Virus record (IMG/VR): IMGVR_UViG_3300036982_000507
Location: 1-39,960 of that record
Length of the DNA: 39,960 bases
Reading direction: 5' to 3' (one strand)
DNA from: a virus
Lineage: Duplodnaviria > Caudoviricetes
Shown: positions 520 through 39,960 of the stretch, piece by piece
Layout of the letters: each line of letters starts with the position of its first letter
Position numbering within the stretch: the stretch's first letter is position 1
The notes under the pieces: model-generated
What the model saw: only the letters and a program-made list of their open reading frames with translations
The model's database searches: none
Told to the model about the DNA's origin: nothing
Program-made: the position numbers and the translations under genes

Positions 520-1230
520 TTATCCTCTGTTAGACCCAAACACGATGCCGTCAAACAAGACGGTGGGACGGGACACGTAGCCACGGTAGCCACTGGTCAG
601 CGTAAACGTTGGCACCAGCGGCAACGCAATGTCGGTGAGCAAGATGCCGAGCCCGACTTGGTCAACGGCGGTGGTGTAGGTAGACCCCGCAAGCGACGTG
701 GTCAGCCCGCAGAACTCTTGCGGATCGGCTGCGAAACTGCCGTTGCGGTCCACGTCGGGGTCTAAATATTCGGCCTGCAAAGCAGACGCGAGCGGGGACG
801 CGGTAACGTCGTTTACAAACAGCGTGTTGCCCTTGGCAATGGTGGTTGCCGCGTTAGCACTCCCCCGAAAGTACACCACCCGTGGGGTACACACCCCACG
901 CACGCAGACCACCACCCGTTGGCCCACGTTGCCCCCCTTTGTGACCACAGCAAACACCCCAGCGCGCAACTTGTCTACTAAAGTAGAGTCGTACCGTGTA
1001 AACATTCGGCCACCGACCACGTTAAACCCCGAGAACTTCTTGTCAAACCGAAGCAGGTCAGCAACCACCGCCGTGGGAAACGTGTCAAGCGACGTCATCC
1101 CCGACAAGTCAAAGCACACCACGTCGCCCTCGCGTAGCGGATAAAGTGACCCGTTGATAGCGGTGGTGGTAATGGTCTGGGGCGCGACGCCGCCAAACGC
1201 GTTTGCGGGGCTGGTGCATCCAGAAATCAT
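520..1230 (-). CDS. Capsid decoration/cement-like protein, paralog 3
   Basis: Shares GDVVxFDL, FNVV, GxFAVV and CVxG motifs with the two upstream ORFs; ATGA overlap with paralog 2; lies after the capsid gene. Confidence 0.65.
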   Translation of the reverse strand: MISGCTSPANAFGGVAPQTITTTAINGSLYPLREGDVVCFDLSGMTSLDTFPTAVVADLLRFDKKFSGFNVVGGRMFTRYDSTLVDKLRAGVFAVVTKGGNVGQRVVVCVRGVCTPRVVYFRGSANAATTIAKGNTLFVNDVTASPLASALQAEYLDPDVDRNGSFAADPQEFCGLTTSLAGSTYTTAVDQVGLGILLTDIALPLVPTFTLTSGYRGYVSRPTVLFDGIVFGSNRG

Positions 1231-1730
1231 GCGCCGTTGGACCCGATTGCGTACCCGCTGAGCAGCACAGGGGTGATGGCGTTTGCGCTAACGGTTTGGA
1301 CCAACACAACCGCCACAGCGGGCCATTCGCCGTTAACTGTTGGGGTAAATGACTTTGCGGTTATTGCTGATGCAGACACTGTCACCCCTGCGGCTATGCT
1401 TGCGGCTAGAATCTTTGCGTTGCACAGCCCGCCGATGCACACCTTTGCCCGCTTCCCCGCGCGCACGTCGGCCATGACCACGCCGAAGATGCCATTTTCA
1501 TGGTTTGACGTCAGCGTGCCCCCGCCCGAAATCACCACGTTGAACGGGCATTTCTTGTGGTTGTAGTTGGTCAACTGCGCGGCGTCGGTGTAGGTGGCGT
1601 TTGTCGACTTGAGGTCAAACATCACCACATCGCCCAACAGAAAGTCTTCCGCCGCAATCGGTTCAACAATCACCGTGGCGGGCTGGAGCCCGCCGAACAT
1701 GCCCGCTGGTGTGACGATTGAACTCGACAT
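1227..1730 (-). CDS. Capsid decoration/cement-like protein, paralog 2
   Basis: Start re-assigned to ATG 1730 (MSSSIVTPAG) after GGAG; motifs GDVVMFDL, KCPFNVV, GIFGVV, VCIGG. Confidence 0.7.
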   Translation of the reverse strand: MSSSIVTPAGMFGGLQPATVIVEPIAAEDFLLGDVVMFDLKSTNATYTDAAQLTNYNHKKCPFNVVISGGGTLTSNHENGIFGVVMADVRAGKRAKVCIGGLCNAKILAASIAAGVTVSASAITAKSFTPTVNGEWPAVAVVLVQTVSANAITPVLLSGYAIGSNGA

Positions 1731-1740
1731 AGTCTGCTCC

Positions 1741-1775
1741 AAGAAATCCAGTGGGCGGCTTTCGCCGCCCACTGG
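1741..1775 (-). terminator. Intrinsic terminator-like hairpin after decoration paralog 1
   Basis: Perfect 12-bp stem CCAGTGGGCGGC-GAAA-GCCGCCCACTGG (1748-1775) followed by ATTTCTT on the minus strand. Confidence 0.8.
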
Positions 1776-1785
1776 GGGTTGTTGT

Positions 1786-2319
1786 TTACGCGCCGCCGAT
1801 GGCGAAGGCGTAGCCGTGAAACAGCACCTTCATCGTCAGCGTTTGGCTTGTAGTCGAAGCCGTAAACGCAATGCCAAGCGGTGCGCCGTTGTTGGTACCC
1901 GCCGCTGGAGTAACCAGCGCAGGGACCAGCACACCAGCGCCGTTTGTAAGCACGGTTTGGCCTGCCACCGTTAGGTTAGTGCTGGCCGTAGTGGTGACCT
2001 TTGCGTCAACAAACCCGCTGACGCAGACCGTGCACCGCTCGCCAGCGGCTGCGGCCTTGGTCACCACGGCAAACACGCCGCCGTGGCCAGCGCCTGCGGC
2101 TGATGGAACAACCGCAAGAACAACCACGTTGAACGGGCACGTCTTGTCGTCAAAGTCGTTGATCTTTGCAACAACGGTGTAGGTCGAGTTTGTGGCCGAG
2201 AGGTCGAACATGACAAGATCGCCGACCGCCACCGCAACGGCCGCGATGGGGGTTGTGGTGATTTGGTGGGGGCTGAGCCCCCCGAGATTTCCTGTCGGAC
2301 AAATGATTCCTGGAATCAT
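1786..2319 (-). CDS. Capsid decoration/cement-like protein, paralog 1
   Basis: ATG 2319 (MIPGIICPTG) after AAGGA; Ala/Val/Thr/Gly-rich beta protein directly downstream of the capsid gene; motifs GDLVMFDL, TCPFNVV, VCVSG. Confidence 0.7.
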   Translation of the reverse strand: MIPGIICPTGNLGGLSPHQITTTPIAAVAVAVGDLVMFDLSATNSTYTVVAKINDFDDKTCPFNVVVLAVVPSAAGAGHGGVFAVVTKAAAAGERCTVCVSGFVDAKVTTTASTNLTVAGQTVLTNGAGVLVPALVTPAAGTNNGAPLGIAFTASTTSQTLTMKVLFHGYAFAIGGA

Positions 2320-2341
2320 GGAAGTTTCCTTTGGTTTGGGG

Positions 2342-3667
2342 TCAGGAGCAAACAAGTGGGGCAACAATGCCGTGACGCTGACGCGAGTTGCAGAACAAGT
2401 TTGACCAGCAGTCCACGGGCTGAACGTAGGTGAACGGCTGGTTGGGGTGGCGCAACACTTCGTGCTGCTTAAAGTAACGCTTGGCGTGGAAGATTGGCGT
2501 GAGGTAGTTGCCGTTCACAAAGAAGAAACGCGGCGCCTTGACAATCGTGTTCGTACCCTCTTCGGTGCCAAACGCTGAAAATGCACCAGCAGCACCCGTA
2601 ACACCGTTGTACCCAGCAAGGGATTGGGTTACAGCACCGCTGTGTGCGGGGAAGATTGCAGCGGTGTCGAGGTCTGAGCAGTAGGTCACGTCGATGCCCG
2701 CGTACTGCGGCGACGAGTACGACGCGTCTTGGTACGACACAAGGGTGTCGTTGGACGCCCGCAACGCGTTGCGGTACATCTGCGTACCCGACCGACTGGT
2801 CAGGATCATTTGACGGTTCAGCGAGTCTTTTTCAAAGTACTGCTGCCGCGTGGACGGTGCCTCGTACTTCAGACGCATAAACATCAGGTCCATTGCGTTA
2901 AAGACGTTGCTGACATTTGGCGTATGGGTACCGCCTTGTGCGTACACCGTGTTTGAGGTTAACGCCGTTGCCGTGGTATTCTGCCACGTGGTGCCCAGCG
3001 GGGTCCGCGCGGTGCTGACTGCGTCGTACAACTCAACGGCGTTGGTCCATCGGGTTTCGGTCGCGGGGCTGATGCGCATCACGTTGGTCGTCGTGTTGGC
3101 CGACGCGTGGAACGGCTTGGTGCCGCGCTGGCCCAACACGCCGCCGAGGTTGGTGCCCAACTCGGTGATGAAGTATGGCAGCGAGTAGGGCAACTTGCCC
3201 GTGTCGTCTTCCATGTTGGCGGGGGACGGTGGGGCCCACAAGTCTTCCTCAAACCCGTTGAGCATGGACGTCCACATCCGCTGCTCTTTGATCCGCTTGA
3301 GACGCTTGTACGCGGCCTTGGTGCTGGCGCCCGTCTCGCCTGTGTTGAGTTCGACTTCGGCGTCGGTCCATGTCATGTAGTCCAAATGGAAACGCCACGG
3401 CGCACGGACGTATTCCGTGACCTGTGGGTTGCGCCACGTGAACGTGTCGTTGGGCTGGTAGTGGTCGTAGGTGCGCGAGTCGTCAAACATGATGACGTCG
3501 CGGATCTCGGTGCCGCCTTGGATGGTTTGTTCGCTGGTCTTGCCCTTGAGCAAGCGGGAGAACGCGTAGGTGTTCTTCACGGCCTCGTTGATCACGGAAT
3601 CTGCACTGGTCAGATACGCGGGACCCGTGGTCGTCATAAAGTCGTTGAACGTAGTAATTGAAGGCAT
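2342..3667 (-). CDS. Major capsid protein
   Basis: 441 aa after the scaffold, GAGG RBS; N-terminal GGTEIRDVIM..Y.P.DTF...APW...EVELNTG and C-terminal NLFCNSRQRHG patterns resemble a widespread podovirus HK97-fold capsid family. Confidence 0.88.
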   Translation of the reverse strand: MPSITTFNDFMTTTGPAYLTSADSVINEAVKNTYAFSRLLKGKTSEQTIQGGTEIRDVIMFDDSRTYDHYQPNDTFTWRNPQVTEYVRAPWRFHLDYMTWTDAEVELNTGETGASTKAAYKRLKRIKEQRMWTSMLNGFEEDLWAPPSPANMEDDTGKLPYSLPYFITELGTNLGGVLGQRGTKPFHASANTTTNVMRISPATETRWTNAVELYDAVSTARTPLGTTWQNTTATALTSNTVYAQGGTHTPNVSNVFNAMDLMFMRLKYEAPSTRQQYFEKDSLNRQMILTSRSGTQMYRNALRASNDTLVSYQDASYSSPQYAGIDVTYCSDLDTAAIFPAHSGAVTQSLAGYNGVTGAAGAFSAFGTEEGTNTIVKAPRFFFVNGNYLTPIFHAKRYFKQHEVLRHPNQPFTYVQPVDCWSNLFCNSRQRHGIVAPLVCS

Positions 3668-20026: not shown

Positions 20027-20054
20027 ATCATAACGCGCGTCACTAGGGTGTCAA
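20027..20054 (-). promoter_or_regulatory. Near-consensus sigma70 promoter for the sigma-like gene
   Basis: TTGACA-16nt-TATGAT on the minus strand, overlapping the stop codon of the giant gene. Confidence 0.8.
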
Positions 20055-23000
20055 TTCGTTGGACACACGGATTACACGTTTCATGGCCCGTGCGCGTGCC
20101 GCAAACAACGCCTCGCGTTGTTCGGGCGTTGCCCCCTTGCCGTCTTTGCGGAGTTTGCGCAACTCCTTTTCGGTCGACTCGACCACGCGGGCCAACGAAA
20201 TGTTGAGCGGGTTGATGCCCCGTTCGATAATCGCCTCTTTGACGGGGTACGACACCTCGGGGTCTAGCAACGCTTCGGTGCGACGCAAGTCGGGCATGAC
20301 CCGTGCGCTGATCCCTTGGTACGTTTCGGCCACGGCGCGCGTGTCCTGCGACGCGTCGCCCGAAAACGAACGGACCAGTGGGATGTCGGTACGTTCCACA
20401 GGCTGGTCGCTCAGCGCAATCTTGGCCAGTCGGTCCATTGTGCGGCCAAACCCGCTGCCGTAGTACCCGACAAGGTATTGGAGTGTGTTGGGGCTGTAGT
20501 CCATGTACCCCTGCCCACCCCCCTCAAACATATCACCACCGCCGAGGCTGTTGAACCCTTGCGCAGCGTCAATGTACGTCTGACTGGTGCCCTCAAAGTA
20601 CGAGAACGCGTCGGTTTCCGTCTGCACCCCAAATGTCTTTGGAAAGATTGGTCGGCCCATGAAATTCTGATTCAGCCCAATCTCAGCCATCGGACGAATC
20701 ATGGTCGGAAACAGCGCAGCCACCAAGTTGCCCGTGCCTGTGGTAATACCCGAACCGCCCATTGGGTTGAACGAGTTCATGGCGTCGGTGACCATCCCCG
20801 ACACCATGTTGCCTACCGACTTGTTGCCGAACGCCGTGTCGGCCGCGCGAACACCTGCCGAGTACAGCACGTTGAATCCGTAGGCCAGCGGGATCTTTAT
20901 GTACTTGCCCGTGCCACGCGGGTCCATCAGAATAATGTTGGACGCCTTCTCGTAATCAGGGATTGCGTCCCACCGCTTGCCGCCCGTTTCCTCGTCGTCG
21001 CCGCCAAGCGCGCGAAGCATTGCGGTCACCATCCCAAACATTGCCAACGACGGGGCTATTGACGCGGCGCGCCGCGTCGCCCTGCCCACGTTGACGCTTC
21101 CTTGGACGCTTGCGTTCAAGAACATGTAAAATGTGTTCAGCGTCGGCTTACGCTTGCCGCCTTTGCCAAAGTCAACCGTGATGTCGCGTGCGGCCAACGC
21201 CGCCTGCTCGGCGCTTGATCCTGTTGCACGACGTTGCTCAAATTGGGCCAACCGCGTCGCAGTTTCGGCGGCTGTAAAGAACGCGGGGTACCACCCAAGC
21301 AGTGTACGTGTCAGCGTGCGGTCGTTTGGATCACGCCGTGTTACACGGGCCGCAAGCGCGTCAAAGTCGGTGTCTTTGGTTTCCAAATCGTTGCGGCCCC
21401 AGTACACCTGATCGCCGCCCGCGCGCACAAAGTTTGCGTACGACCGCGTTGGCCGCGTGGGATCGTTCCACGCATCGGTAAACACGTTGAGAAATGCACG
21501 CGGGTACCGCGTCAGCATTTCCGCCGTGTCCCGCGCGCCATGACTCGCCGTGTTGACCATTGACCCCGCCATAATGTCGCGGACCAAGTTAACAGGCGCA
21601 AACTCAGGAGCGCCCATGCCCGTGGTAAAGAATCGCCACACGTTGTTGACGTGGTTAAGCCCCCGCGCGAGCGTGCCAATGTCTGCGTTTGGCACCGTCA
21701 TCGCGGTGGCCAAACGGGGGTTGTTGATGCGGACAACTACCATGTCACCCGCTTCGTAGTTGTGGCCGTTGATGGTGATTGGTGCGTTTACGTACGCGCC
21801 GAAATGCCGTGGTTCCGACATCCAATTGCCGTCGTGCACGGTGCGGACGACGCCGTCTACATTGCGCTGAATAGTTGGTCGGACCACCACCGCCATCGAG
21901 GGGTCGTTTACCAGTGTCACCAAACGAACAAACCGTTGTCCGATTTCGTTGCGGGCAACCCGTTTCATCGTGTCTTCGTGCAAGAACCCGACCTGCGACG
22001 TTACCCCCTCGGCCCGTGACCCACGGCCCAATCGTTCGGGCATTGCACGGCTTTGGGTTGACATCCCACGGCCAAACACGTTGCCCCCGTCAAAGTCTTC
22101 AAACAGTTCGTCAAATGGTCGCGCGGGCGCGCCCCGCAACGGCACGTAGTGCGTGTACCGCGTGGTAAGCAACGTGTGCGTTTCGTTGGTGATGAGCCCC
22201 GCGTCGCGGCGAAGATCAAGCCCCGCACGCAACAACTCACGCCAGTCCTCGGCGATGCGGTTCATCTCGCCGTACTGGCCAGTGGCGCGTGCTTGGTTGA
22301 TGATTTGCTGCGCGTCAGCCGTCATCATCCCCGTGCCACCGTCGGGAAACCGTGGGTTGATTGTCGCAATGTACGCGTTGCCGTTGTTTACCGCGTGCTG
22401 CGCCGTCAGAAAGTTGTCCATCGCCTCAAGCGAAATGTTGTGCTCGGACATGTCGCGCAAGGTGTTTGCGTACTCGCGTGTCGCGGCCTGCTGCATGGCG
22501 CCAAGACGGCCTGTAAGCACACGCACCCCGAGATACGGGTTGGCAGGGTCGGGCAGCGCCACCCCGCTGGTTTCCTGCCAGTTGTCGGCGTACCGACGCA
22601 ACTCGTCGTACTTGTCGACAAATTGCAGCGTGGCTTCGTCTTTGACGCCGCGTACGCCTTCACGCATCGACATGCGGATGGGCACCTCGTTGTGAAACAG
22701 GTCTGGGTACGCGTTGACAACGGCTGCGGGCTGGAGCCGCAACGAACGACGGATGTCTGCGTCCTTGGGGCTGTAGTCCCCGTTGTTGTTTGCAACAGAC
22801 TTGACCGCCGTGTCGTCCCACAAGATCACAGCGGTGCGTTTGCCGTAGATCCGTTGCATTGCTTCAATGCGTTCATTGCTTGTCTTTTCGTACGCGTTCA
22901 TGCCCGACATTTCCCATTGGGCAAACTCATCATTGAGTTCAAACAATTCGGCCGCGCTTTCTTGTTGCGCTGCGGCAACCATAAAGTCGCGGTCGTCATG

Positions 23001-26000
23001 ATACGTTTCGCTGTCGGGGTTGAGGTTGGCGGAGGCGGCGTACGCGTTTGCCCCCTTTCCCTCGATTGTATTTTCGTACGTGATTCCGTCGTACCCAAGA
23101 TTGTTCAACATATTGCGCACATAATCACGGCTGAACGATTGGTTTCCGTTTGGGTGCTGGTCGTTGTTAGTCATTACCGATTCAAACCCTGACTGGTTGT
23201 ACCGCAAAAACACCTCTGCGCCTGCTTCGGGAATGCCAAGCCCCGTGTAAATTTCCATAAGCGCGTCGTCCATTGTTTTTGTCGAAATTATGTCCACCTG
23301 CTTCAGACCCTTGAGCACGTTGAACGCAGTCCACGACCCCATGTCCTCGACCTGTGCCACGCGGGTTGCGCGGGCGTAGACAGGAAACAGCACCGCTCCG
23401 TCGGGACTGTTGCGGAATGGTGAATTGTACACCCGCAAACGGCGGTCAAAGAAATCTGTCGCTTGGGCAAACGGGCCAAGGTGCAACCCAAACTGATCGG
23501 CGCTCATGTTCACGTCAAACTGGGTGTGGTGGCGGTACCCGCCATGAAACCAAATGTCGTTGGGGTGGATCCCGTTCAACGCGTTGCCGTTGTCAAAGTA
23601 CTTTGTAAACGCTGGGGTCGTTGGCTTTGAATACGGCGACGCGACCAGTTTCTTGTACAGGGTGGTCACCCCCCTACGCGTTTGCGCAGCCACGTTGACC
23701 AGACTGAACTCCTTTCTGTAGTCGCGTTCCTTCGCATCAATATTATTTGAAAATGGTGCAAGGGTTACAGCGTCTTCGATGACGCCTAAGTCGCGCAGAC
23801 TCATCCGCGTGCCGTGCGTCTCGGCCAACGTTACAATGTGCGCACGGCCTTTGGGCCCAACAATTGGGTCCTCGTACCACGGTGCAATGCGGGTGCCGTC
23901 GGCACGCTCGCTGTCCCGAGTGACCATGAAATCTGGCGGCTTCTCGCCACGCACAGGCTTGCCCTTTGCGTCGAGCGGCGGCGCCCAATTCATCTTGGCC
24001 CACTTGGTGGTAGAAAGCGCTTTGGTAAACAGACCAAAGTGGGCCGCGTCGAACATAAACGACTGGCCGTCGATGGTGTACTTGTGCGACGGCTTTAGCA
24101 CGCCGTCGGCGTCACGCGTGTACCCGTACTCGGCGCCAAAGGCATAGGTGTCGTATTGACCTTCTTTGGCCCACACCCCCACCATCTGCTGCTCACCCGT
24201 CGCAATCATTTGAAGCAGCCCGTCGAGAGTTTTGTGGCTGGCCTCTTGGTCCGACGCGCCCACCCAGTTCAACCAATGCTCGGCGCCGTGGTTAGCGTGC
24301 CGCGTCATCTCGGGCTGCGTCTTCAGCAGCGGGCCGAACACGCGGTTGGGATCAATGGCCCGCTCCACCGCTTCGTAGATGGCGATGCCACGCGCGCCGT
24401 TGAACAGCGTCGCCAGCCCCCCAACCTTCTTGGTTTCAACGCTAAACGTAACAGGCAACGCCGCAGGGTCTTCGGCCACGCGGCGTGCCGTTTCGGCCTT
24501 GGCCTCGGCCGTGGCCTCGGCGACCAACACGCTTGTGAGTTCGCGCTTTGCGGCGGCGTGGGCCAATTTGTCGCCGTTGAAATCGGGCAACCGCACCTCG
24601 CGGACCATCTCGTCGTCGATGACGACTTGCAGGGCCACCGTGTTGCCGTCGTACACGTTGACAAATCGTCCGTCGCGGTTCCAATGGTCCGCCACACGCA
24701 CGCGGTCGTACACCGACCCGTCCGTCTTTCCCGCAACAAGCGCCGAGAATGAAATCACCTTGTTGTCGATGCCAAGCGAGCCGCCAAGCCGCGTGAACAC
24801 GCGGCGGACCTTCTTTGCTGTCGCGGTTGGGCTGGCCATTGCGTTGTGCAAATGGATTACCCCTGTTTCCGTTACCCCGTCAATTGTTACCTGCTTGCCG
24901 ATGTTGGCAAGAAACGACTTGCCAAAGGCGTTGCCGTTGTGCGTGGCCCCCGCCCCTGGGGTGCCGTTTGCGCGCTTGACGTCGCCGTCTTTGTCCCGAA
25001 GCACTTCTCCGTCAACGCCAATCACGTCGTACCGCGTGCGCTCAAACATTGCGTCGACAAATCTCAGCCACTCACCCGTGTCTGCCTTGGTCCAGACGCC
25101 AGCCACGGCGCGGTCGACAAACGTTTGATACGTTTCGCCCTTTGAGTTTGTGAAATTGACCAGATCAATAAACAAACTTTCTTGCACGCGTGGCGACACG
25201 CCGCGCGACATGAATCCCCACATAGCAAGCGCGACGGTGTGGTGTGGCTTTACCTGTCCCGTGGCGTAGAACGCGCGCAACCGCTGCGCCATGTCGAGCC
25301 CGTGGACGGCGTCGTCTACCATGCCCTGACTCAGCCGCCCGCCGTTGGCGCGGAGCGCCATGTTCCTCTGCATCCCCGCGCTGTTGTTTGCGAGGTCTGA
25401 AATCAAGAAATCGGGCAACACGGGGATGTCGCGCGAGCCGTACAAATCGGCAAAGAATCGTTCCGTGGCGTCACGCGACGTAAACGCGTCGGGATGCCGT
25501 TCCAACAACGCGTCAACTTCTACAAGCGAACGTTCTGCGTTGGCCATGCTGGTCTTTGCGGGGATCTTGTACCCCCCCTCAAACTGCTGCATGTTGCCGC
25601 GATACCGCGTCAGGAACTGGCGGTCGAGTCCGTGCTTTCGGTTGACGGACCGACTGGCGAGTTCTGCGATGAGGAGGTCTTTGACTTGAGGCGCTTCGGC
25701 TTTGGCGAATTCGCCGAGCCACCCATCGAGATCGATGTCGAAGCCTTCGTCTTGGACGATTTCAACGATTGTGGCAGCAGGCTTGACCCAAAGATCCCAT
25801 GTCGTTTTGCCGACTCGGGATCGACTGCCAGCCCCCGTTGCGCGAGGATTTCGTTGAACTTTGCCCAAGACATCGAAGTCTCCAATCGTAGTGTAAGTGC
25901 TTTGAACCTGCGCAAACTCCACGGACATTCCGCGTGTTGCAGCAATTTGCGTTGCGTTGTCGACAAACGTTTGACGCGACGACGTTTGTCCGTCATAGTC

Positions 26001-29000
26001 GCCGTACACGGCCCACACGCCACGCTTTGACCCCAGTGTAGTCGCGCCGTTGAACTTTGCACCAACATCGGACAAGAGGCCACGCAATGTGGGCTCATCA
26101 AGCGGGTTGGTGGTATTTGCCACAAATATTGCTGCCAACACCTGCTCTGTTTCGGGCACGTTCTTTGTCGCGGGGCCGACGGTGATTGCGGCCTTCTGCA
26201 ACAGCAACGACCCCAACACCTCGGCGACTCGGTGCGTGTCAACGTGGTTCAACCCGCCCACGTGGATCCGCATCGACCGCTCGGTGCGTCCCTCAAAGTA
26301 TCCCAACACCTCTTCGATGTTTGGCTTGTTTACACCAATTTGGTTGCCAAGCATGGCTTGCAGTTGGGTGTTGAACTCCACCCCCGTAACCGCGTCGCGC
26401 ACCCGTTCGTTCACGCTGTCGTACGCGGCCTGCTCGTTGAACAGCGGGTCTGCGCTGACGTCGGGACGGATGATGTGCTTTGACAGAATTGGTTGAGCGG
26501 TGGGCTCCACGCTCATGCTGATCCGACGGGTGTCGGTTACCGACTGCACGTCGTCTTTGACATTCTTGCGCCGCAACACAGACGCCGCGCGTGCCTGAGC
26601 CGCCGTGTTTCGCCGCTGCAACACAGCCTTTGTAGGTTGCGTGTCGCCCCCCTGCTCGCGCTGCGAATACATGATGCGTTCGTCGGCGGTTGGGTTGGCG
26701 TTGAAATACCCCTTCACCTGATTGGGGTTAAACACAACAACGTCTTTGCCAAATTGGCCGTAGTCACGAATAATTCCGTCGTAACCCAATTCGTCTTGCA
26801 GCAATTTACGCCACTTTGACCGATCAGTAAGATCAAGTCCGCGCGCGGTTGGGCCTAACTCTCGCGCAAGCACCTTTGCCACTTGGTCAACTACGTCTTC
26901 GGTGCTATTCTCAAGAATTAACGGACGACGGATATTTGCAACAGCGGGAACAATTGCAGACTGGTTGACAAATTTTCCAGAATCTGGATCCTCCGCAAAT
27001 TCGTTTGCGCGCCGAGGGTCTGTTGTCAGGTAAATTCCCCCGCCGATTTGGCCGTTGATAGAACTAATAAACGTGTCAAACTCAGCACGCGTTCCGTGAT
27101 ACAACGGAATCAACGCGCCGTCGGCGTCAACAACTTTGGACCCCTTTGCCCAGACTCGCATCTTGGGCGTCATGTCGTAGTTGTTGAGCGGGCGAAGCGA
27201 TGACCGCGACTCAACAGGGGTGTCGCGCTGCGAATACAGCGCCGTCAAATCGGTAGGCGTTGCCGCCATTTTTTGATCGGCGTATCCAACGCCTTGTTTC
27301 AAATCGTCCATCCATTTGGCGTAGCGTGGATCGGATTGTCCCCACACCGACCCGTCGGCGTTGCGCCGATTCGGCCCGTAGTTCAGCCACGAATTTTGCC
27401 CACGTGTTTCGGTTGCCATTGCCTGACGGGCTAACGGGGAGAACATCGACGCGTGCGATCGGTACGCGTTCTCTTCGCCACGTGGACCAAATTGAAATCC
27501 CTCGGCGCTGTGGCCAAGGATGTCGTGCACCCCGCGAAACAAATCGTTAAACGTTTGTTGGTACACGTCGCCCGCGCTGTCCAACACAGGGACACCCGCG
27601 TCGGCCAACAACACGTTGTTGTTGATTGCGTCCGCAAGCAACGACGGGTTTGACCCAAACGACATGGCCTCGTTTGGGTTGATTGTCTTAAAGTAGAACA
27701 CGCGCTTGTTCTTGCGCACGTCGTCAATCATGTCGGCAGAGTCTGCGTATGGCTGGCCCTCGCCAGCCCACGGGATGATTTCGTAGCCACGGTCTTTGAG
27801 GTACTGGTACTGGTCAAGCGTTTCCTCGCTGAACGCTTTGTACGCGGCACGTGTCTCGGGATTGGTGGTTGACGCGGGCTGTGATTCAAACCAATCCGCA
27901 TACCGCTTTGCAAACGACTCGTCAACCTCGGCGTACGTGTCTTCAATTGGTTCGGCTTTGATCCCACGGTCGCGCATGTAATCGTTGCGAACGGACCGCA
28001 CATCGTCGTTTGCCTCGCGCCGTCCTGCGCGGTCGCGCAGCGAGAACGCAATCTCTTCGGACGGTGTTTGCCTAAGCATCCGCGTCCGCTCAATGCGGGC
28101 CACGGTGTTGGGCGCAACGGGCTCGGTTGGCGATTCGCCACGGATGATGGCCATCGCCTGTATTGCGTTGCGTCTGCGAATTGCAATGGCTTCCAAGTCT
28201 GGCGCTGCTGTTTGCACCACACCTGTGTCGGACTCGGTTGGCACCGCGTCGGGCGTTGTGGCCACGGTGTCGCGCATCGCGTCGGGCACCTTGCGGATGT
28301 TTGACGGGATGCGATTGGGTTGCATCACGCGGCTGCTTGGCGACAGTTGCGCGCTGGTGTTTGCCAACACGGGGGCCACGCTTGCAAGCGCGGTCATTGC
28401 ACTGGCCAACAACCCTGCGCGTTGCTCGGGTGGCGCAGACTGTGCCTGCTGCAACAACGCCGCCGCGTCGCTCATCTTCTTGTCGTCGTCGCCCGCAATT
28501 GCGCCCGACATACTCGGCGTTGCCGCGTCGCGCAGCGAGAACGCAATGGGGTTTGGTGGTTTGCCAACAGGGGCGGGCGTGGCCGTCGGTGTAGCAGTCG
28601 GCACAGCGGTCGGCGCAGCGGTTGGTGTAGCCGTTGGCGCGGCGGTCACGTCAACAGGCGCGGCACGTGGTGCCGATGGCGTTGGCGGACGCATCGCGGC
28701 CTGCAACGCGGCGCGCGCGTTGACACGTTTCTGGTTTGTTTCAAGATCTTTGCGCACCGCCTCGGCGACGCGGTCGCTGAACTTTGAGTGAATTTGCAAC
28801 TGCTCTTCGCGCACGCCGTCGAGCCGTTGCCGAATTTCAAACAACACCTGCTGCGCTTCGGGGCCAAAGAATCCGTTCTTGACCAACGCGTTTGCCATCC
28901 ACCGCGTAAACCGTTTGTCGGCGCGGCCCTGCGCGTCGCGATACAGCGCTTCGTATTCCGCAGCCATTACTGTGGCGCTGCCTGCGGTGCGGTTTGCCGT

Positions 29001-31853
29001 CGTGGCTTGGCTTTCGGCGGCAAATGCTTGCACCGATTGCTTCGCGCGTTGCGCGCCACCCGCAGCGTCAACCTGTTCGGCTTGCTCTGCCGTGGCCGTG
29101 CCCGCCATCACGTCGTTTGCGGCAGCGGCCAGCCCACGGTAGTACGCAATGACTTGCGGCAGGCTCATGTTCTTGACGTTGTCGTCAACTTGCCTCATGT
29201 ACTCGGCGCCGCCACGCATGGCAAACGCGGGGTCTATTTGCAGCAACTTTGCGACGAACTGGGCGCCTGCTGCTGAACGTGACGCGGTGCGGTGCCGTGT
29301 TTCGTGCATCGCAATCGCAAACGCGTTGCGCGCCGTAAAGGCGGTGCCGTTCTCCCGAATTAAGTATACGCCGTCGGGGCTAGATTGTGATAGATACGCG
29401 CCATCGGCAAGCCCGTCTCGTTCAATAGTGCGCGACGTGCCGTCATTCTGCTTGATGGTGAACACCACCCGCGCGTTGAGCACAGTTGCCTGCTGACCCG
29501 TGAGCCGTGCGATGTTACGCTCGCCGTCGGAAAGGTCGGCGTCGGCCACGCGGACCAACGACACAACAGACGTGACATCGGCGTTGGTCGCGTCGCCAAT
29601 TTCATCGGCGCTAAGCAGTTTGGATTCAAACGGCGCGTCTTGTTTGACCCGCACCCCCTTGCGCTTGGCCTGCGACCCCTGCGCCGCGCTGGTCATTTCA
29701 AGGTGAAGCGCCTTGATGCCGCGCGCCTCGTTACGTTTACTTTGCGGACGGGAGAACTGTGGCGTGGTGTTGGTCTGCACCGCGTCGGCGTCAATCTGCC
29801 GTTGAATCTGATCCGCAACAGGCGCGGTAACGCCACCCTCTGTGGCGGTAACCGTCAACCCGTTTCGTACCGCAAGCGACGCAATCGCTGGCGCTGCTTC
29901 AAGCATTTCGCCGTTGTCGGAATACGGAATCACGTCCACGATGTGGCCCGCGTTGTTGCGCAGCGTCAACACGCCCGCAAGCACCGTTCCGTTGTTAAGT
30001 TCGGGAAATCCTGTCAACGCTTCAACGTTGCCGTCTTCGATGTTGGCGCGGGCTTCGGCTTCAGTGCCATTTGCAACGTACACGTGCGTGCCGTTTGACC
30101 TTGTGATAGGGATGTTGCCAATTCCCAACGCGTTCATGCGGTCGCGGACGTCTTTGGTAAGCGTAGTACCAACGTCGTCTTCTTTGACAAACATTGCGGT
30201 GCGGTCGCCGTTGGCCAGTTGCTCCACTTGGAACATGGCCATGCTGCTGCCGCGCGCGGGCTGCGCATTGCGGTTGAGGTGCAACAGGTCTGGCTTGTTG
30301 GCCGACGACTCAGACTTGCGATTCATGCGCCCCTGCGCGTCTGTTTCCTGTGTCTCGACAATTGCCCGTGTCACAAACTCAGTGCCTTTGCGAACCTCGG
30401 CGGCAACGCCTTTGCGGATAGCGCGCTCATCCCGTGCGCCCTTTGAAATGATGTGGTGCCCGCCGCCAAACAAGCCGCCCGCGTAGGCGCCAACGCGGAG
30501 CGAGTGCCACACATTCTCGTCAATGAACAACTGCTTGGGATCCGAAGAGAATAACGGGCGATCGATTGTGTAAAAATCATTGTTTGGGGCAAACAATGTC
30601 TGGCTCAACACGTCTTGCACCTGTTCGCCAAGATGCGGCGCACCTTCTTCAAGCCCTTCCACTGTTGCGGGCACCCCAACCACCGCCGCAACTTTCTTGA
30701 TCACGCCTGCGGGGCCGCGCTGGCGCATCATGCTCTTGTTCAAGTTGCTGAGCATGGTGCCGACCGACGTGGCACTGGCCTTGCCCGCAACTTTGCGGCC
30801 CAACGCCGTGCCGAGAAACGCGGCTTGGGCCGTGTCGCCGACGTACTCGGATCCGTATTCAAACGCCGCGCCGATCACGCCGTACATTTCCATCTCGTTG
30901 AACGTTGGCATGGCGGGCGGTTTGATGCCCATTTGCTCAGCGGTTAGCAGTTGTTGCTTGTAGATGTCCCACCGCCCTTGTTTGGCGTCGGAATACCCCG
31001 CCATCGCAAACGGCAGCGCAAGCACTGCGCGGGCTTCGGGCGTCGGCGCAAGCATCGACGGCAGCGATGCGGGCAACGACCCCGCAGCAGCGCCAAGATC
31101 GCCTGCAAACGTGTGCGCTGCGCCGCTAACAAACCCTGTTGGCGCGCCCAGCCGCTCAGACGCCAACACAGGCGCGTCGGGATCGCCTGCCAGATGCTGC
31201 GCGTAGCCGTCTACGTCAACAGCGTTGCCCGTGGCTTCGTTCAAATACATCGTGTCCACGGCGCGGCCAAACCGTTGGCCCGCTGCCATAGCGTCGGCCA
31301 TTCCCGCCATGCTTTGCACCATGCGCGCGGGGTCGTTGCGCCCCGTCCACCGCATACCCCCTGGCCCGTACACGTCGTACATCGAGAATCCGCCTGCGGC
31401 CACGCCGCCCGCAAACCCCTCGAAACTGGTGAGCGCGTTGCCAAGAAAGTTCTCAAACACCGCCACAGGCGCGGTTCGTTTCTGCGCTTGATACGAGTCC
31501 CATGCAATAGGCTTTAACCCCTTGAGAAACTGGTCGGCTTGCAGATCCGCAAACGCGTTCACGTCGTCGTCGTCGGACTGATACGCGCCGCCCAACGACG
31601 CCGCGTCGGCCTCGTTGTCGATAAACGAAACGCCCGCGTGCTTGGTCACGTCACGCATCAGTTGCAACGATTTTTGACGTGCCGCGTTCCACGCGCGGTC
31701 GTCGATGCCGTTCATCGCGTCGGCAATAAACGCCTTTGCGTCGGGGGATTCCAACGACCACCCGCTGTTGATGGCGTCCTGCGTCGCCTTTTGACGTGCG
31801 CGTTGACGGATGACATCGATTTGGCTTTGGGCGATGGGGGTGGGTGGGATCAT
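20043..31853 (-). CDS. Giant polyvalent virion/ejection protein (3936 aa): HExxH module, HDxxGH module, two ART-PolyVal-like modules, HhH-glycosylase-like module, C-terminal LPD38-like domain
   Basis: Uninterrupted ORF ending the ejection-protein cluster. Motifs: MHETRH; FRGVHDILGH...GPRGEENA...TETRGQNSW; LYHGT..FDTF...GIYLT...GYDGII; WFHG...GLHLG...GYDGITYEN; GIDNKVISF...YDRV...HWLNW; HYVPLRG, ARDITVDF, WDAIPDYEK, KIPLAYG, NQNFMGRPI. Confidence 0.9.
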   Translation of the reverse strand: MIPPTPIAQSQIDVIRQRARQKATQDAINSGWSLESPDAKAFIADAMNGIDDRAWNAARQKSLQLMRDVTKHAGVSFIDNEADAASLGGAYQSDDDDVNAFADLQADQFLKGLKPIAWDSYQAQKRTAPVAVFENFLGNALTSFEGFAGGVAAGGFSMYDVYGPGGMRWTGRNDPARMVQSMAGMADAMAAGQRFGRAVDTMYLNEATGNAVDVDGYAQHLAGDPDAPVLASERLGAPTGFVSGAAHTFAGDLGAAAGSLPASLPSMLAPTPEARAVLALPFAMAGYSDAKQGRWDIYKQQLLTAEQMGIKPPAMPTFNEMEMYGVIGAAFEYGSEYVGDTAQAAFLGTALGRKVAGKASATSVGTMLSNLNKSMMRQRGPAGVIKKVAAVVGVPATVEGLEEGAPHLGEQVQDVLSQTLFAPNNDFYTIDRPLFSSDPKQLFIDENVWHSLRVGAYAGGLFGGGHHIISKGARDERAIRKGVAAEVRKGTEFVTRAIVETQETDAQGRMNRKSESSANKPDLLHLNRNAQPARGSSMAMFQVEQLANGDRTAMFVKEDDVGTTLTKDVRDRMNALGIGNIPITRSNGTHVYVANGTEAEARANIEDGNVEALTGFPELNNGTVLAGVLTLRNNAGHIVDVIPYSDNGEMLEAAPAIASLAVRNGLTVTATEGGVTAPVADQIQRQIDADAVQTNTTPQFSRPQSKRNEARGIKALHLEMTSAAQGSQAKRKGVRVKQDAPFESKLLSADEIGDATNADVTSVVSLVRVADADLSDGERNIARLTGQQATVLNARVVFTIKQNDGTSRTIERDGLADGAYLSQSSPDGVYLIRENGTAFTARNAFAIAMHETRHRTASRSAAGAQFVAKLLQIDPAFAMRGGAEYMRQVDDNVKNMSLPQVIAYYRGLAAAANDVMAGTATAEQAEQVDAAGGAQRAKQSVQAFAAESQATTANRTAGSATVMAAEYEALYRDAQGRADKRFTRWMANALVKNGFFGPEAQQVLFEIRQRLDGVREEQLQIHSKFSDRVAEAVRKDLETNQKRVNARAALQAAMRPPTPSAPRAAPVDVTAAPTATPTAAPTAVPTATPTATPAPVGKPPNPIAFSLRDAATPSMSGAIAGDDDKKMSDAAALLQQAQSAPPEQRAGLLASAMTALASVAPVLANTSAQLSPSSRVMQPNRIPSNIRKVPDAMRDTVATTPDAVPTESDTGVVQTAAPDLEAIAIRRRNAIQAMAIIRGESPTEPVAPNTVARIERTRMLRQTPSEEIAFSLRDRAGRREANDDVRSVRNDYMRDRGIKAEPIEDTYAEVDESFAKRYADWFESQPASTTNPETRAAYKAFSEETLDQYQYLKDRGYEIIPWAGEGQPYADSADMIDDVRKNKRVFYFKTINPNEAMSFGSNPSLLADAINNNVLLADAGVPVLDSAGDVYQQTFNDLFRGVHDILGHSAEGFQFGPRGEENAYRSHASMFSPLARQAMATETRGQNSWLNYGPNRRNADGSVWGQSDPRYAKWMDDLKQGVGYADQKMAATPTDLTALYSQRDTPVESRSSLRPLNNYDMTPKMRVWAKGSKVVDADGALIPLYHGTRAEFDTFISSINGQIGGGIYLTTDPRRANEFAEDPDSGKFVNQSAIVPAVANIRRPLILENSTEDVVDQVAKVLARELGPTARGLDLTDRSKWRKLLQDELGYDGIIRDYGQFGKDVVVFNPNQVKGYFNANPTADERIMYSQREQGGDTQPTKAVLQRRNTAAQARAASVLRRKNVKDDVQSVTDTRRISMSVEPTAQPILSKHIIRPDVSADPLFNEQAAYDSVNERVRDAVTGVEFNTQLQAMLGNQIGVNKPNIEEVLGYFEGRTERSMRIHVGGLNHVDTHRVAEVLGSLLLQKAAITVGPATKNVPETEQVLAAIFVANTTNPLDEPTLRGLLSDVGAKFNGATTLGSKRGVWAVYGDYDGQTSSRQTFVDNATQIAATRGMSVEFAQVQSTYTTIGDFDVLGKVQRNPRATGAGSRSRVGKTTWDLWVKPAATIVEIVQDEGFDIDLDGWLGEFAKAEAPQVKDLLIAELASRSVNRKHGLDRQFLTRYRGNMQQFEGGYKIPAKTSMANAERSLVEVDALLERHPDAFTSRDATERFFADLYGSRDIPVLPDFLISDLANNSAGMQRNMALRANGGRLSQGMVDDAVHGLDMAQRLRAFYATGQVKPHHTVALAMWGFMSRGVSPRVQESLFIDLVNFTNSKGETYQTFVDRAVAGVWTKADTGEWLRFVDAMFERTRYDVIGVDGEVLRDKDGDVKRANGTPGAGATHNGNAFGKSFLANIGKQVTIDGVTETGVIHLHNAMASPTATAKKVRRVFTRLGGSLGIDNKVISFSALVAGKTDGSVYDRVRVADHWNRDGRFVNVYDGNTVALQVVIDDEMVREVRLPDFNGDKLAHAAAKRELTSVLVAEATAEAKAETARRVAEDPAALPVTFSVETKKVGGLATLFNGARGIAIYEAVERAIDPNRVFGPLLKTQPEMTRHANHGAEHWLNWVGASDQEASHKTLDGLLQMIATGEQQMVGVWAKEGQYDTYAFGAEYGYTRDADGVLKPSHKYTIDGQSFMFDAAHFGLFTKALSTTKWAKMNWAPPLDAKGKPVRGEKPPDFMVTRDSERADGTRIAPWYEDPIVGPKGRAHIVTLAETHGTRMSLRDLGVIEDAVTLAPFSNNIDAKERDYRKEFSLVNVAAQTRRGVTTLYKKLVASPYSKPTTPAFTKYFDNGNALNGIHPNDIWFHGGYRHHTQFDVNMSADQFGLHLGPFAQATDFFDRRLRVYNSPFRNSPDGAVLFPVYARATRVAQVEDMGSWTAFNVLKGLKQVDIISTKTMDDALMEIYTGLGIPEAGAEVFLRYNQSGFESVMTNNDQHPNGNQSFSRDYVRNMLNNLGYDGITYENTIEGKGANAYAASANLNPDSETYHDDRDFMVAAAQQESAAELFELNDEFAQWEMSGMNAYEKTSNERIEAMQRIYGKRTAVILWDDTAVKSVANNNGDYSPKDADIRRSLRLQPAAVVNAYPDLFHNEVPIRMSMREGVRGVKDEATLQFVDKYDELRRYADNWQETSGVALPDPANPYLGVRVLTGRLGAMQQAATREYANTLRDMSEHNISLEAMDNFLTAQHAVNNGNAYIATINPRFPDGGTGMMTADAQQIINQARATGQYGEMNRIAEDWRELLRAGLDLRRDAGLITNETHTLLTTRYTHYVPLRGAPARPFDELFEDFDGGNVFGRGMSTQSRAMPERLGRGSRAEGVTSQVGFLHEDTMKRVARNEIGQRFVRLVTLVNDPSMAVVVRPTIQRNVDGVVRTVHDGNWMSEPRHFGAYVNAPITINGHNYEAGDMVVVRINNPRLATAMTVPNADIGTLARGLNHVNNVWRFFTTGMGAPEFAPVNLVRDIMAGSMVNTASHGARDTAEMLTRYPRAFLNVFTDAWNDPTRPTRSYANFVRAGGDQVYWGRNDLETKDTDFDALAARVTRRDPNDRTLTRTLLGWYPAFFTAAETATRLAQFEQRRATGSSAEQAALAARDITVDFGKGGKRKPTLNTFYMFLNASVQGSVNVGRATRRAASIAPSLAMFGMVTAMLRALGGDDEETGGKRWDAIPDYEKASNIILMDPRGTGKYIKIPLAYGFNVLYSAGVRAADTAFGNKSVGNMVSGMVTDAMNSFNPMGGSGITTGTGNLVAALFPTMIRPMAEIGLNQNFMGRPIFPKTFGVQTETDAFSYFEGTSQTYIDAAQGFNSLGGGDMFEGGGQGYMDYSPNTLQYLVGYYGSGFGRTMDRLAKIALSDQPVERTDIPLVRSFSGDASQDTRAVAETYQGISARVMPDLRRTEALLDPEVSYPVKEAIIERGINPLNISLARVVESTEKELRKLRKDGKGATPEQREALFAARARAMKRVIRVSNELTP
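25610..25873 (-). CDS. Possible nested out-of-frame ORF (87 aa, MSWAKFNEILAQRG...) inside the giant gene
   Basis: TACACT-acgatt-GGAG-acttcg-ATG; amphipathic N-terminus followed by a Ser/Lys-rich tail. No convincing -35. Confidence 0.4.
   Translation of the reverse strand: MSWAKFNEILAQRGLAVDPESAKRHGIFGSSLLPQSLKSSKTKASTSISMGGSANSPKPKRLKSKTSSSQNSPVGPSTESTDSTASS
26656..27238. repeat. 16-bp exact direct repeat encoding YSQR, bracketing the first ART-like module
   Basis: TCGCGCTGCGAATACA at 26656-26671 and 27223-27238. Confidence 0.85.
28032..28547. repeat. 21-bp exact direct repeat encoding IAFSLRD
   Basis: GTCGCGCAGCGAGAACGCAAT at 28032-28052 and 28527-28547. Confidence 0.9.
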
Positions 31854-38672: not shown

Positions 38673-38936
38673 TCATTGCCTTTCGAGTCGCTCAAGGCGA
38701 CTGTTGAGTTCACGCAGACGGTCTTCCGTTTGCTTGTCGGTGATGGCAAACCCGATGTTTGCCTTTGCAAGTTCCGACACAATACTGCTCAGTTCCTTCA
38801 CCTGCGATGTTGTTGTCGACAATTGTTGATCTTTCCGTCCCATTGCCAATATCAGCGCGCCGATGCCCAAGCACATGGCCACAACTTGTGCCCACGCAGC
38901 AATCAACTGGCTGCTTTGTTTGCCGTCATCGCTCAT
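38673..38936 (-). CDS. Single-TM coiled-coil protein of the lysis cluster
   Basis: N-terminal TM segment then a coiled coil (RLRELNSRLERLER); GAGGA RBS; ATGA overlap. Confidence 0.7.
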   Translation of the reverse strand: MSDDGKQSSQLIAAWAQVVAMCLGIGALILAMGRKDQQLSTTTSQVKELSSIVSELAKANIGFAITDKQTEDRLRELNSRLERLERQ

Positions 38937-39960
38937 GCAATCCTCAGCGCGTATAAATTGGTGGCCCCGTCGTAGTTTCCTGTGGTGCTTAAATACCGTG
39001 CGGTGTACGCCGCGACGCTTGAGACGGCTTTCATATCAATTGATGTGGTGGTGGTTAGCACAACAACAACAGAGCAGTTGAGTCCCTGTGAGGTGGACGT
39101 TACGGATGCCTTGTGCGCCGAGGTTGACGCAAGGTTGGCTGGGGTTGTGGCATTGTAAATGAACATGGTCATGGCAGCAGAACCCGCTGAAGCACCCTGC
39201 ATCAAAACGGTCTGCCCGTTGATCATCCATGTTCCTGCTGGCAGCGAGATTGATGCCACCGTATACACCTGATTTGCTGTCGTCATCGCCACGTCAACAG
39301 TTGCAATAAACTGGACGTAAGAAACAACGCCCGTGGCGCCCGTAGGCCCCGTGGCGCCTGCAACGCCTTGGACCCCGTCGGTGGTCATCAGTTCCCATTG
39401 CGACGCGGGCGGGGCGACGTTTGAGTTGGACGTGACCGCAATCCACGCACTCGTTCCGTCGCGGACCACGTCGCCGACCGCGTACAACTCGTTTGGGTTC
39501 CACACCCCGCGCCAGCGGATGTTGCTGAACGCGCTCGCGGGGGCGAGGACGCCGCCTACACCACAAACCCCCGACGATACCGCGTAGGATTCTCCGCGAA
39601 AGGGGCCGACACGGGACGGCATTAACCTGCCGTAGTCTCGCTGTTGAATTCCGTCCTTGATCGCGGCCGTGTTGTACAACGGGCCGTTGTCGATCTCGAT
39701 GAGCCGCGCCGAAAGACCTTCGTCTTCGTACGCGAGCGCAAAGGCCCGTGCGTATGCAATGAGTAACGACTCAACATACGCGGGCACAGGAACAATGTAA
39801 TCAGACGCGGTGACGTCGGACACCGCCACCCACGACGCACGGTATCGGATGATCAACGCGTCGGCGGTGCTGGTCTGTGGGGTGGGGTACAGGTCGAGTT
39901 GCACCGCTGGCATACCAGACCCCGCGACCAGTGGGGTGGTGCCGTTGGACTGGGCCCACG
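38933..39960 (-). CDS. C-terminal part of adaptor/fibre fusion (starts at 518)
   Basis: Adaptor-like LYPTP...IIRY...LLIAYARAFA, then WRGVWNPNELYAVGDVV module, short GXY collagen repeat, and a beta-rich tip SISLPAGTW...ALRIA. Confidence 0.82.
   Translation of the reverse strand, partial: WAQSNGTTPLVAGSGMPAVQLDLYPTPQTSTADALIIRYRASWVAVSDVTASDYIVPVPAYVESLLIAYARAFALAYEDEGLSARLIEIDNGPLYNTAAIKDGIQQRDYGRLMPSRVGPFRGESYAVSSGVCGVGGVLAPASAFSNIRWRGVWNPNELYAVGDVVRDGTSAWIAVTSNSNVAPPASQWELMTTDGVQGVAGATGPTGATGVVSYVQFIATVDVAMTTANQVYTVASISLPAGTWMINGQTVLMQGASAGSAAMTMFIYNATTPANLASTSAHKASVTSTSQGLNCSVVVVLTTTTSIDMKAVSSVAAYTARYLSTTGNYDGATNLYALRIA
39800..39960. repeat. Terminal overlap, right copy
   Basis: Matches 1-160; this copy keeps the reading frame of the adaptor gene. 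Confidence 0.97.

Follow-up and report, generated by a model that had tools for sequence, protein, structure and literature searches.

What is a short serine-arginine motif doing at eight places in one giant phage protein? The question is raised by a viral record, IMGVR_UViG_3300036982_000507, of 39,960 bases (the window hereafter, meaning the whole stretch that was analysed), which CheckV rates as 97% complete. Comparison with Pfam and PHROGs identified a minus-strand run of terminase, portal, a scaffold-like ORF, major capsid and tail-fibre genes, then three small ORFs and finally an ORF of 3,936 aa; the giant ORF therefore belongs to the virion module, having strand and run in common with the terminase, portal, capsid and tail-fibre genes. 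Podovirus ejection genes come in such an order, with three small ORFs and a giant ORF at the end of the run. The phage is podovirus-like, and the giant gene is the last of four genes for probable ejection proteins. The two ends of the contig (window 1-140 and 39820-39960) overlap by approximately 140 bases that agree apart from a small mismatch close to the end of the contig. A circular or terminally redundant genome is therefore likely, and the ORFs at 3-593 and 38933-39913 probably form a single gene. After the capsid gene, at window 520-2367, there are three adjacent paralog-like small genes, one with a weak match to a phage cement protein, and these are likely to encode decoration proteins.

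The original prediction had set the giant product beside the polyvalent proteins, and this comparison stands. Pfam matches to LPD38 (aa 3626-3817; 122.8 bits, cut-off 27) and ART-PolyVal (aa 1576-1722; 70.4 bits, cut-off 31.2) exceed the curated cut-offs, and these domains are combined in one polypeptide with a second ART-like module, an HDxxGH module and a zincin-like domain (Table 1). On three features that are read from sequence, the domain mix, the LPD/ART matches and a gene in the virion module, we class it as a member of the polyvalent proteins. By analogy with LPD38 relatives that are virion proteins, namely phi24B gp47 (in a preprint) and JC1 gp69, the protein is likely to be packed in the virion and injected; for another relative, PTXU04 gp25, a preprint describes a requirement in infection. 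The protein class is known and the novelty is a conserved, family-wide junction code. Autoproteolytic release of domains from polyvalent proteins was predicted by Iyer et al. in 2017 (PMC5512222), in a paper whose main text names neither a linker motif nor a cut site (no hits for 'linker' or 'boundar'). A description of the motif was not found in the literature searched, a search outside which most subscription papers lie; further literature on what is known and what is new comprises PMC9024508, PMC9503650 and PMC13730344.

Table 1. Layout of the giant protein, with coordinates in the window
Feature	Position	Strand	Remarks
Giant LPD38 polyvalent protein (P0001), 3,936 aa	20043..31853	(-)	
N-terminal block, aa 1-749	29607..31853	(-)	Conserved among homologues; no family match
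Zincin-like (MPTase-type) domain, aa 750-1024	28782..29606	(-)	H850, E851, H854, E947 invariant
Junction motif 1, IAFSLRD, Ser1106	28527..28547	(-)	
Spacer segment K3, aa 1106-1270	28044..28538	(-)	
Junction motif 2, IAFSLRD, Ser1271	28032..28052	(-)	21 bases identical with motif 1
Cassette K0, aa 1271-1540	27234..28043	(-)	HDxxGH domain (phrog_3170); mobile in the family
Tandem junction motifs 3 and 4, ALYSQRD (Ser1541) and SRSSLRP (Ser1552)	27189..27242	(-)	
Cassette K4, aa 1552-1729	26667..27200	(-)	ART-PolyVal domain; ADP-ribosyltransferase fold predicted by model
Junction motif 5, IMYSQRE, Ser1730	26655..26675	(-)	
Cassette K1, aa 1730-2684, ~950 aa	23802..26666	(-)	No database match
Junction motif 6, TRMSLRD, Ser2685	23790..23810	(-)	
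Cassette K2, aa 2685-3036	22746..23801	(-)	ART-like, the second such module; matches K4 by profile at 94% probability
Junction motifs 7 and 8, IRRSLRL (Ser3037) and IRMSMRE (Ser3062)	22659..22754	(-)	
Conserved C-terminal block, aa 3062-3936	20046..22670	(-)	Includes LPD38 at 20978-20403

All eight motif copies named in the original prediction were recovered at their positions (Ser at aa 1106, 1271, 1541, 1552, 1730, 2685, 3037 and 3062), and none lies inside the Pfam ART-PolyVal or LPD38 matches. The pattern.S[LQM]R[DELPQ] occurs eight times against 0.60 expected, a count reached by 0/2,000 shuffles, and the bare S[LQM]R occurs ten times against 2.1, with 0/2,000 shuffles reaching ten. Since these patterns were picked after viewing the sites, it is the tests on homologues that carry weight. 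A proposed ninth copy, PQFSRP (aa 698-703), is present but is scored by neither family profile and L002 and L003 differ at that place, so we do not count it as a site; a motif-like PAFAMRG also occurs inside the zincin-like domain itself. Elsewhere in the phage, 0/30 other ORFs score with the family profile. An AlphaFold model of aa 1240-1790 places 4/4 covered sites at pLDDT <50, a value that denotes low confidence and is not proof of disorder, between confidently modelled HDxxGH and ART modules.

Searching with the C block returned 90 proteins, of which 53 are close (43-100% identity) and constitute the family set. The profile built from these homologues is [IPAS]-[MRQ]-[FYM]-[SA]-[MQLV]-R, with a short form [FYM]-[SA]-x-R, and it detects 229 sites in the 53 proteins compared to 8-21 in five shuffles, although homologue counts are not mutually independent. 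Among the 51 proteins that include an N block, the middle region (89,627 aa), which separates the conserved zincin-like domain of HExxH...E type from the LPD38 block, contains 210 sites, whereas the N block (52,760 aa) contains 10. The C block (44,052 aa) has no site, and this conserved C-terminal block is free of the motif in 51/51 homologues examined. Unbiased counts of gapped triples place F-S-x-R and M-S-x-R among the top multi-copy patterns, not alone and with orthologous positions dominating. Motif copies from the same protein resemble each other more than expected by chance (0.349 vs 0.183; 0/2,000), a comparison that ignores kinship. The motif is conserved as protein: all six Ser codons are in use at 48 distinct DNA sites (TCG 19, TCC 12, TCA 6, AGC 6, TCT 4 and AGT 1).

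Individual sites have their own histories. The last site, motif 8, occupies one fixed place in 52/53 homologues, and the residues Gly+4, Gly+7 and Asp+10 are as invariant as its Arg, which indicates that this copy may belong to the C-block fold. At the joint of K0 with the ART cassette, two copies stand 11 residues apart and relatives often retain just one, the other having decayed. In one clade of eight proteins Ala replaces Ser at most non-orthologous motif sites; FastTree recovers this clade as a single group in the C-block tree and interleaved in the zincin tree. The motif variant therefore does not clearly track the zincin and follows the C-block tree better.

The placement of the motif at module boundaries, as had been proposed, is borne out by the way in which family members exchange segments. 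Alignments to the window protein break at ~1540-1553, 1725-1729 and 3057-3062, and cassette order is altered in the homologues P0025, P0027 and P0048. We examined edges by all-against-all BLAST with the motifs masked, using alignments of >=40% identity and excluding the start of the C block. There were 764/1,472 alignment edges <=15 aa from a motif, compared to 129 on average and 229 at most for a null of 300 circular shifts; these edges depend on one another, and roughly half of them are away from any motif, at divergent ends or missed sites. At least two nearby edges were found at 211/262 sites. Homology breakpoints are hence concentrated at the motif, copies of which flank the HDxxGH (K0) and ART (K4) cassettes. 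Cutting 51 proteins at their motifs yields 31 segment clusters in 32 arrangements, with some clusters merged by missed sites. Five members, P0025 (1194-1479), P0027, P0032, P0040 and P0043, carry a second HExxH metallopeptidase as a motif-bounded cargo cassette, K10.

As to the cargo, the model of the ART cassette recovers an ART fold, aligning with PARP catalytic domains at Z 6.0-6.6 (rmsd ~4, 113-131 aligned residues), and its top structural match is the cyanophage A4 ejection protein gp27 (PDB 9k3a). The profile match to K4 identifies K2 as a second ART-like module. For K1, a resemblance to helix-hairpin-helix glycosylases was not confirmed. The 'glycosylase-like' label given earlier to this region (aa 1730-2684) found no backing, as there was no match in Pfam, PHROGs, NCBIfam, PDB sequences or the ESM Atlas, and comparison of K1 with the cassettes that replace it in relatives gave no significant profile match. 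GIDNKV and DRV are invariant in 7/7 K1 homologues.

A candidate reader of the motif is encoded in the same chain. The HETRH motif lies at 29306-29292, N-terminal to the motif array, as noted earlier, and H850, E851, H854 (29306-29292) and E947 (29015-29013) are invariant in 37/37 aligned sequences. Family members with this region have HExxH in 49/51 cases and HExxxH in 2/51, with the downstream Glu in 51/51. HExxH is confined to the giant protein among this protein and the 30 other ORFs. The anatomy of the domain (a G-x-Y strand, a strand, the HExxH helix and a later Glu) is like that of the MPTases of distant LPD38 proteins, and its profile matches the zincins of those proteins over the core only (54%, E 1.3e-4; reversed control 0.3%), albeit with profiles that were HExxH-seeded. 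The domain model (pLDDT 74, pTM 0.52) places the ligands on predicted helices and shows strands ahead of the HExxH helix, with one key stretch at pLDDT <50. Three fold searches with this model (PDB by Foldseek and by VIA, and BFVD) returned no clear match to a zincin structure, the ESM Atlas gave unnamed clusters under 0.9 only, and no Pfam MPTase or MuF_C match was found in the domain, which belongs to a small divergent clade of 17 representatives. Predicting a complex of aa 750-1024 with Zn and a 32-residue peptide around motif 5 gave a score of 0.02, which we count neither for nor against the reading of the motif by this domain. We therefore term the domain zincin-like by its conserved residues, with the fold unconfirmed, and regard it as a predicted peptidase. 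The absence of a recognisable prohead protease, remarked on in the original prediction, was also our result: none was recognised among 29 ORFs with Pfam and PHROGs, nor with NCBIfam, many ORFs being without any match, and the genome scans recognised no protease besides the zincin-like domain.

The motif extends well beyond the close family. It persists in LPD38 proteins that are just 25-30% identical, with phages of Escherichia, Vibrio and Burkholderia all carrying variations on a single theme. The C block matches 356 cultured-phage records, and in the four phages examined (933W, BcepMigl, Vibrio 1.205.O and PTXU04) an aromatic-Ser stands ahead of the C block and also borders cassettes or the MPTase. 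In 933W, YSR occurs four times against 0.38 expected, with junctions FYSR, QYSR and YYSR; junction variants are KYSV and RFSV in BcepMigl and QYSA in PTXU04, whose protein has a single MPTase at aa 1161 and a single site near aa 1297. An ART cassette carries the variant of its host protein on both sides (SAKR in P0080, LSR in P0065 and FSR in P0069/P0070), and in P0084-P0087 the motif adjoins the first strand of the ART. P0080 has several ART-PolyVal cassettes, each bounded by S-A-K-R.

We also examined whether motif and zincin occur together in a distant set of 275 proteins, from which five were dropped as the start of the C block was not locatable. The remaining 270 comprise 177 with an HExxH-type zincin, 43 that are further zincin-like (in most of which Glu replaces the first His), 27 whose N part is short and 23 with no detectable zincin. 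Against a background of 18-31%, the motif was found <=50 aa upstream of the C block in 105/177 of the HExxH type, 13/16 and 15/27 of the further zincin-like proteins, 16/27 of those with short N parts and 7/23 of those with no detectable zincin; the pattern for this set was chosen after looking and misses drifted variants. Overall the motif precedes the C block in 118/193 proteins with a zincin compared to 7/23 without, and by clusters in 15/30 that bear a zincin compared to 1/6 that do not. This co-occurrence leans, weakly, towards a link. Approximately 40 distant LPD38 proteins (within P0242-P0322) have Glu for the first His (EExxH/EExxxH), a substitution that is conserved throughout the clade, and many of these have the motif. 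Short LPD38 proteins of 1,470-1,950 aa (P0149, P0160, P0164, P0167, P0177, P0189 and similar) have cassettes and motif without a zincin, possibly because the gene is split and an ORF upstream encodes the zincin.

The motif is thus non-random, conserved, situated in linkers and at the joints of interchangeable cassettes, and downstream of a zincin-like domain. Our favoured explanation, which we hold to be somewhat the better bet, is that it marks where the protein's own zincin cuts. Interchangeable cassettes are strung between the zincin-like domain and the LPD38 block, the same short motif recurring at each joint, and the predicted zinc peptidase of the same chain would cut at the motif, likely after packaging or on ejection, freeing cassettes to act as separate proteins in the host. 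Cuts at all sites would give pieces of ~1,105 (the N block with the zincin), 165, 270, 180, 955, 350 and 875 residues. The same joints double as crossover points for cassette exchange; a new cassette would be tolerated if the motif on its flanks is acceptable to the resident reader. Three elements of this mechanism are inferred: the peptidase activity of the domain, its recognition of the motif and the need for the cut. Counting against the mechanism are the unconfirmed fold, the weak co-occurrence of motif and zincin, the motifs kept beside Glu-for-His zincins and in seven proteins without a detectable zincin, the Ser-to-Ala variant that follows the C-block tree better than the zincin tree, the motif-like PAFAMRG within the zincin-like domain, the possible role of the last copy in the C-block fold, and the motif that adjoins the first ART strand in P0084-P0087. 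The broader proposition is more tentative, and we put it at slightly short of even: in many tailed phages the LPD38 ejection proteins would be polyproteins that process themselves and share a cleavage code that drifts (aromatic-Ser-x-Arg and variants), with a built-in zincin cutting at every joint and effectors gained or swapped by insertion of a domain between two sites.

Alternatively, the motif may never be cut and may instead be both recombination joint and structural cap, providing short end homology for crossover, with gene conversion homogenising the copies and the residues capping the neighbouring fold. Motifs 1 and 2 are identical over 21 bases, which indicates that recombination or conversion between copies also happens, and motifs 3 and 5 over 14; swap edges are located at the motif, the Ser-to-Ala variant follows C-block descent and the last site continues into invariant C-block residues. 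However, third codon positions vary, TCN and AGY are both used, and a repeat search of the window found no DNA repeat family joining all eight copies. Unrelated cassettes have the motif in common, the modelled sites appear to be in linkers, and persistence in proteins of 25-30% identity is not readily explained by this route, which we consider unlikely.

A slightly lower probability attaches to a motif that is bound and left uncut, acting as a handling signal for packing, unfolding or tail threading of the modules and read by the zincin-like domain or the ejection machinery. Polyvalent proteins do provide counterexamples to cleavage: the MPTase-bearing N4 virion RNA polymerase, ArdC and TraC1 are packaged or transferred uncut, and the MPTase region of the N4 enzyme is needed for its encapsidation (PMC5512222). 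Multiple motifs are, moreover, kept by many proteins with a Glu-for-His zincin. A signal of this type does not account for the invariance of the general-base Glu and all three metal ligands in the family, for the sufficiency of a single copy per joint, or for an 875-aa C block that must also be ejected and has no motif. The least probable of these alternatives is, in our estimation, a cut site for a host protease or another phage protease, with the zincin acting otherwise, for example on peptidoglycan or host proteins. Such an activity has been proposed in the phi24B preprint, where the gp47 metallopeptidase is suggested to degrade peptidoglycan, and the motif does occur in the 7/23 distant proteins without a detectable zincin and in 16/27 short forms. 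These short forms, though, may be split-gene halves with an upstream zincin, no other protease was recognised in the genome, and a foreign enzyme sits poorly with one motif theme across phages of Escherichia, Vibrio and Burkholderia whose variant differs between host proteins. We therefore retain cleavage by the resident zincin as the preferred reading.

Known systems resemble this one in part. Prohead proteases such as T4 gp21 and phiKZ gp175 cut packaged internal proteins at a short degenerate linker motif. The likeness lies in such a motif within a packaged protein; the differences are that the prohead motif is common to capsid, scaffold and internal proteins, whereas here it is restricted to one protein, and that the giant protein itself carries the candidate enzyme, a metallopeptidase, no prohead protease having been recognised among the ORFs scanned. 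The phage polyvalent proteins of Iyer et al. (PMC5512222) likewise include giant multidomain proteins of the virion module with a zincin-like HExxH, ART-PolyVal and LPD38, but the zincin here is divergent. The Stx-phage products phi24B gp47/933W gp72, the DarB-like protein of Bcep22-like phages and PTXU04 gp25 share a homologous C block (~26% identity), an MPTase and aromatic-Ser at the same junctions, but have other cargo and fewer sites; their published accounts, in the parts available to us, hold no report of processing either way.

The motif supplies the 2017 prediction of autoprocessing with candidate cut sites, both here and in the cultured coliphage PTXU04, where the gene is needed for infection. 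If these sites are cut, giant podophage ejection proteins would be polyproteins comparable to those that RNA viruses make. The motif would then delimit exactly dozens of injected modules that lack annotation, this family alone contributing 31 segment clusters, and new counter-defence enzymes may well be located among them. A plug-in cassette for delivering proteins that are injected with the DNA would also follow.

Cyanophage A4 gp27 (PDB 9k3a; PMC12002296) contributes an ART-like fold in a podophage pre-ejectosome and the best match to our ART cassette model, but is without HExxH, LPD38 block or motif array. The account in PMC12002296, in the part available to us, does not mention an ART-like domain; in our comparison the match to the ART model falls in the C-terminal region of gp27, the cyanophage A-4L protein encoded at L029 20116-25269.
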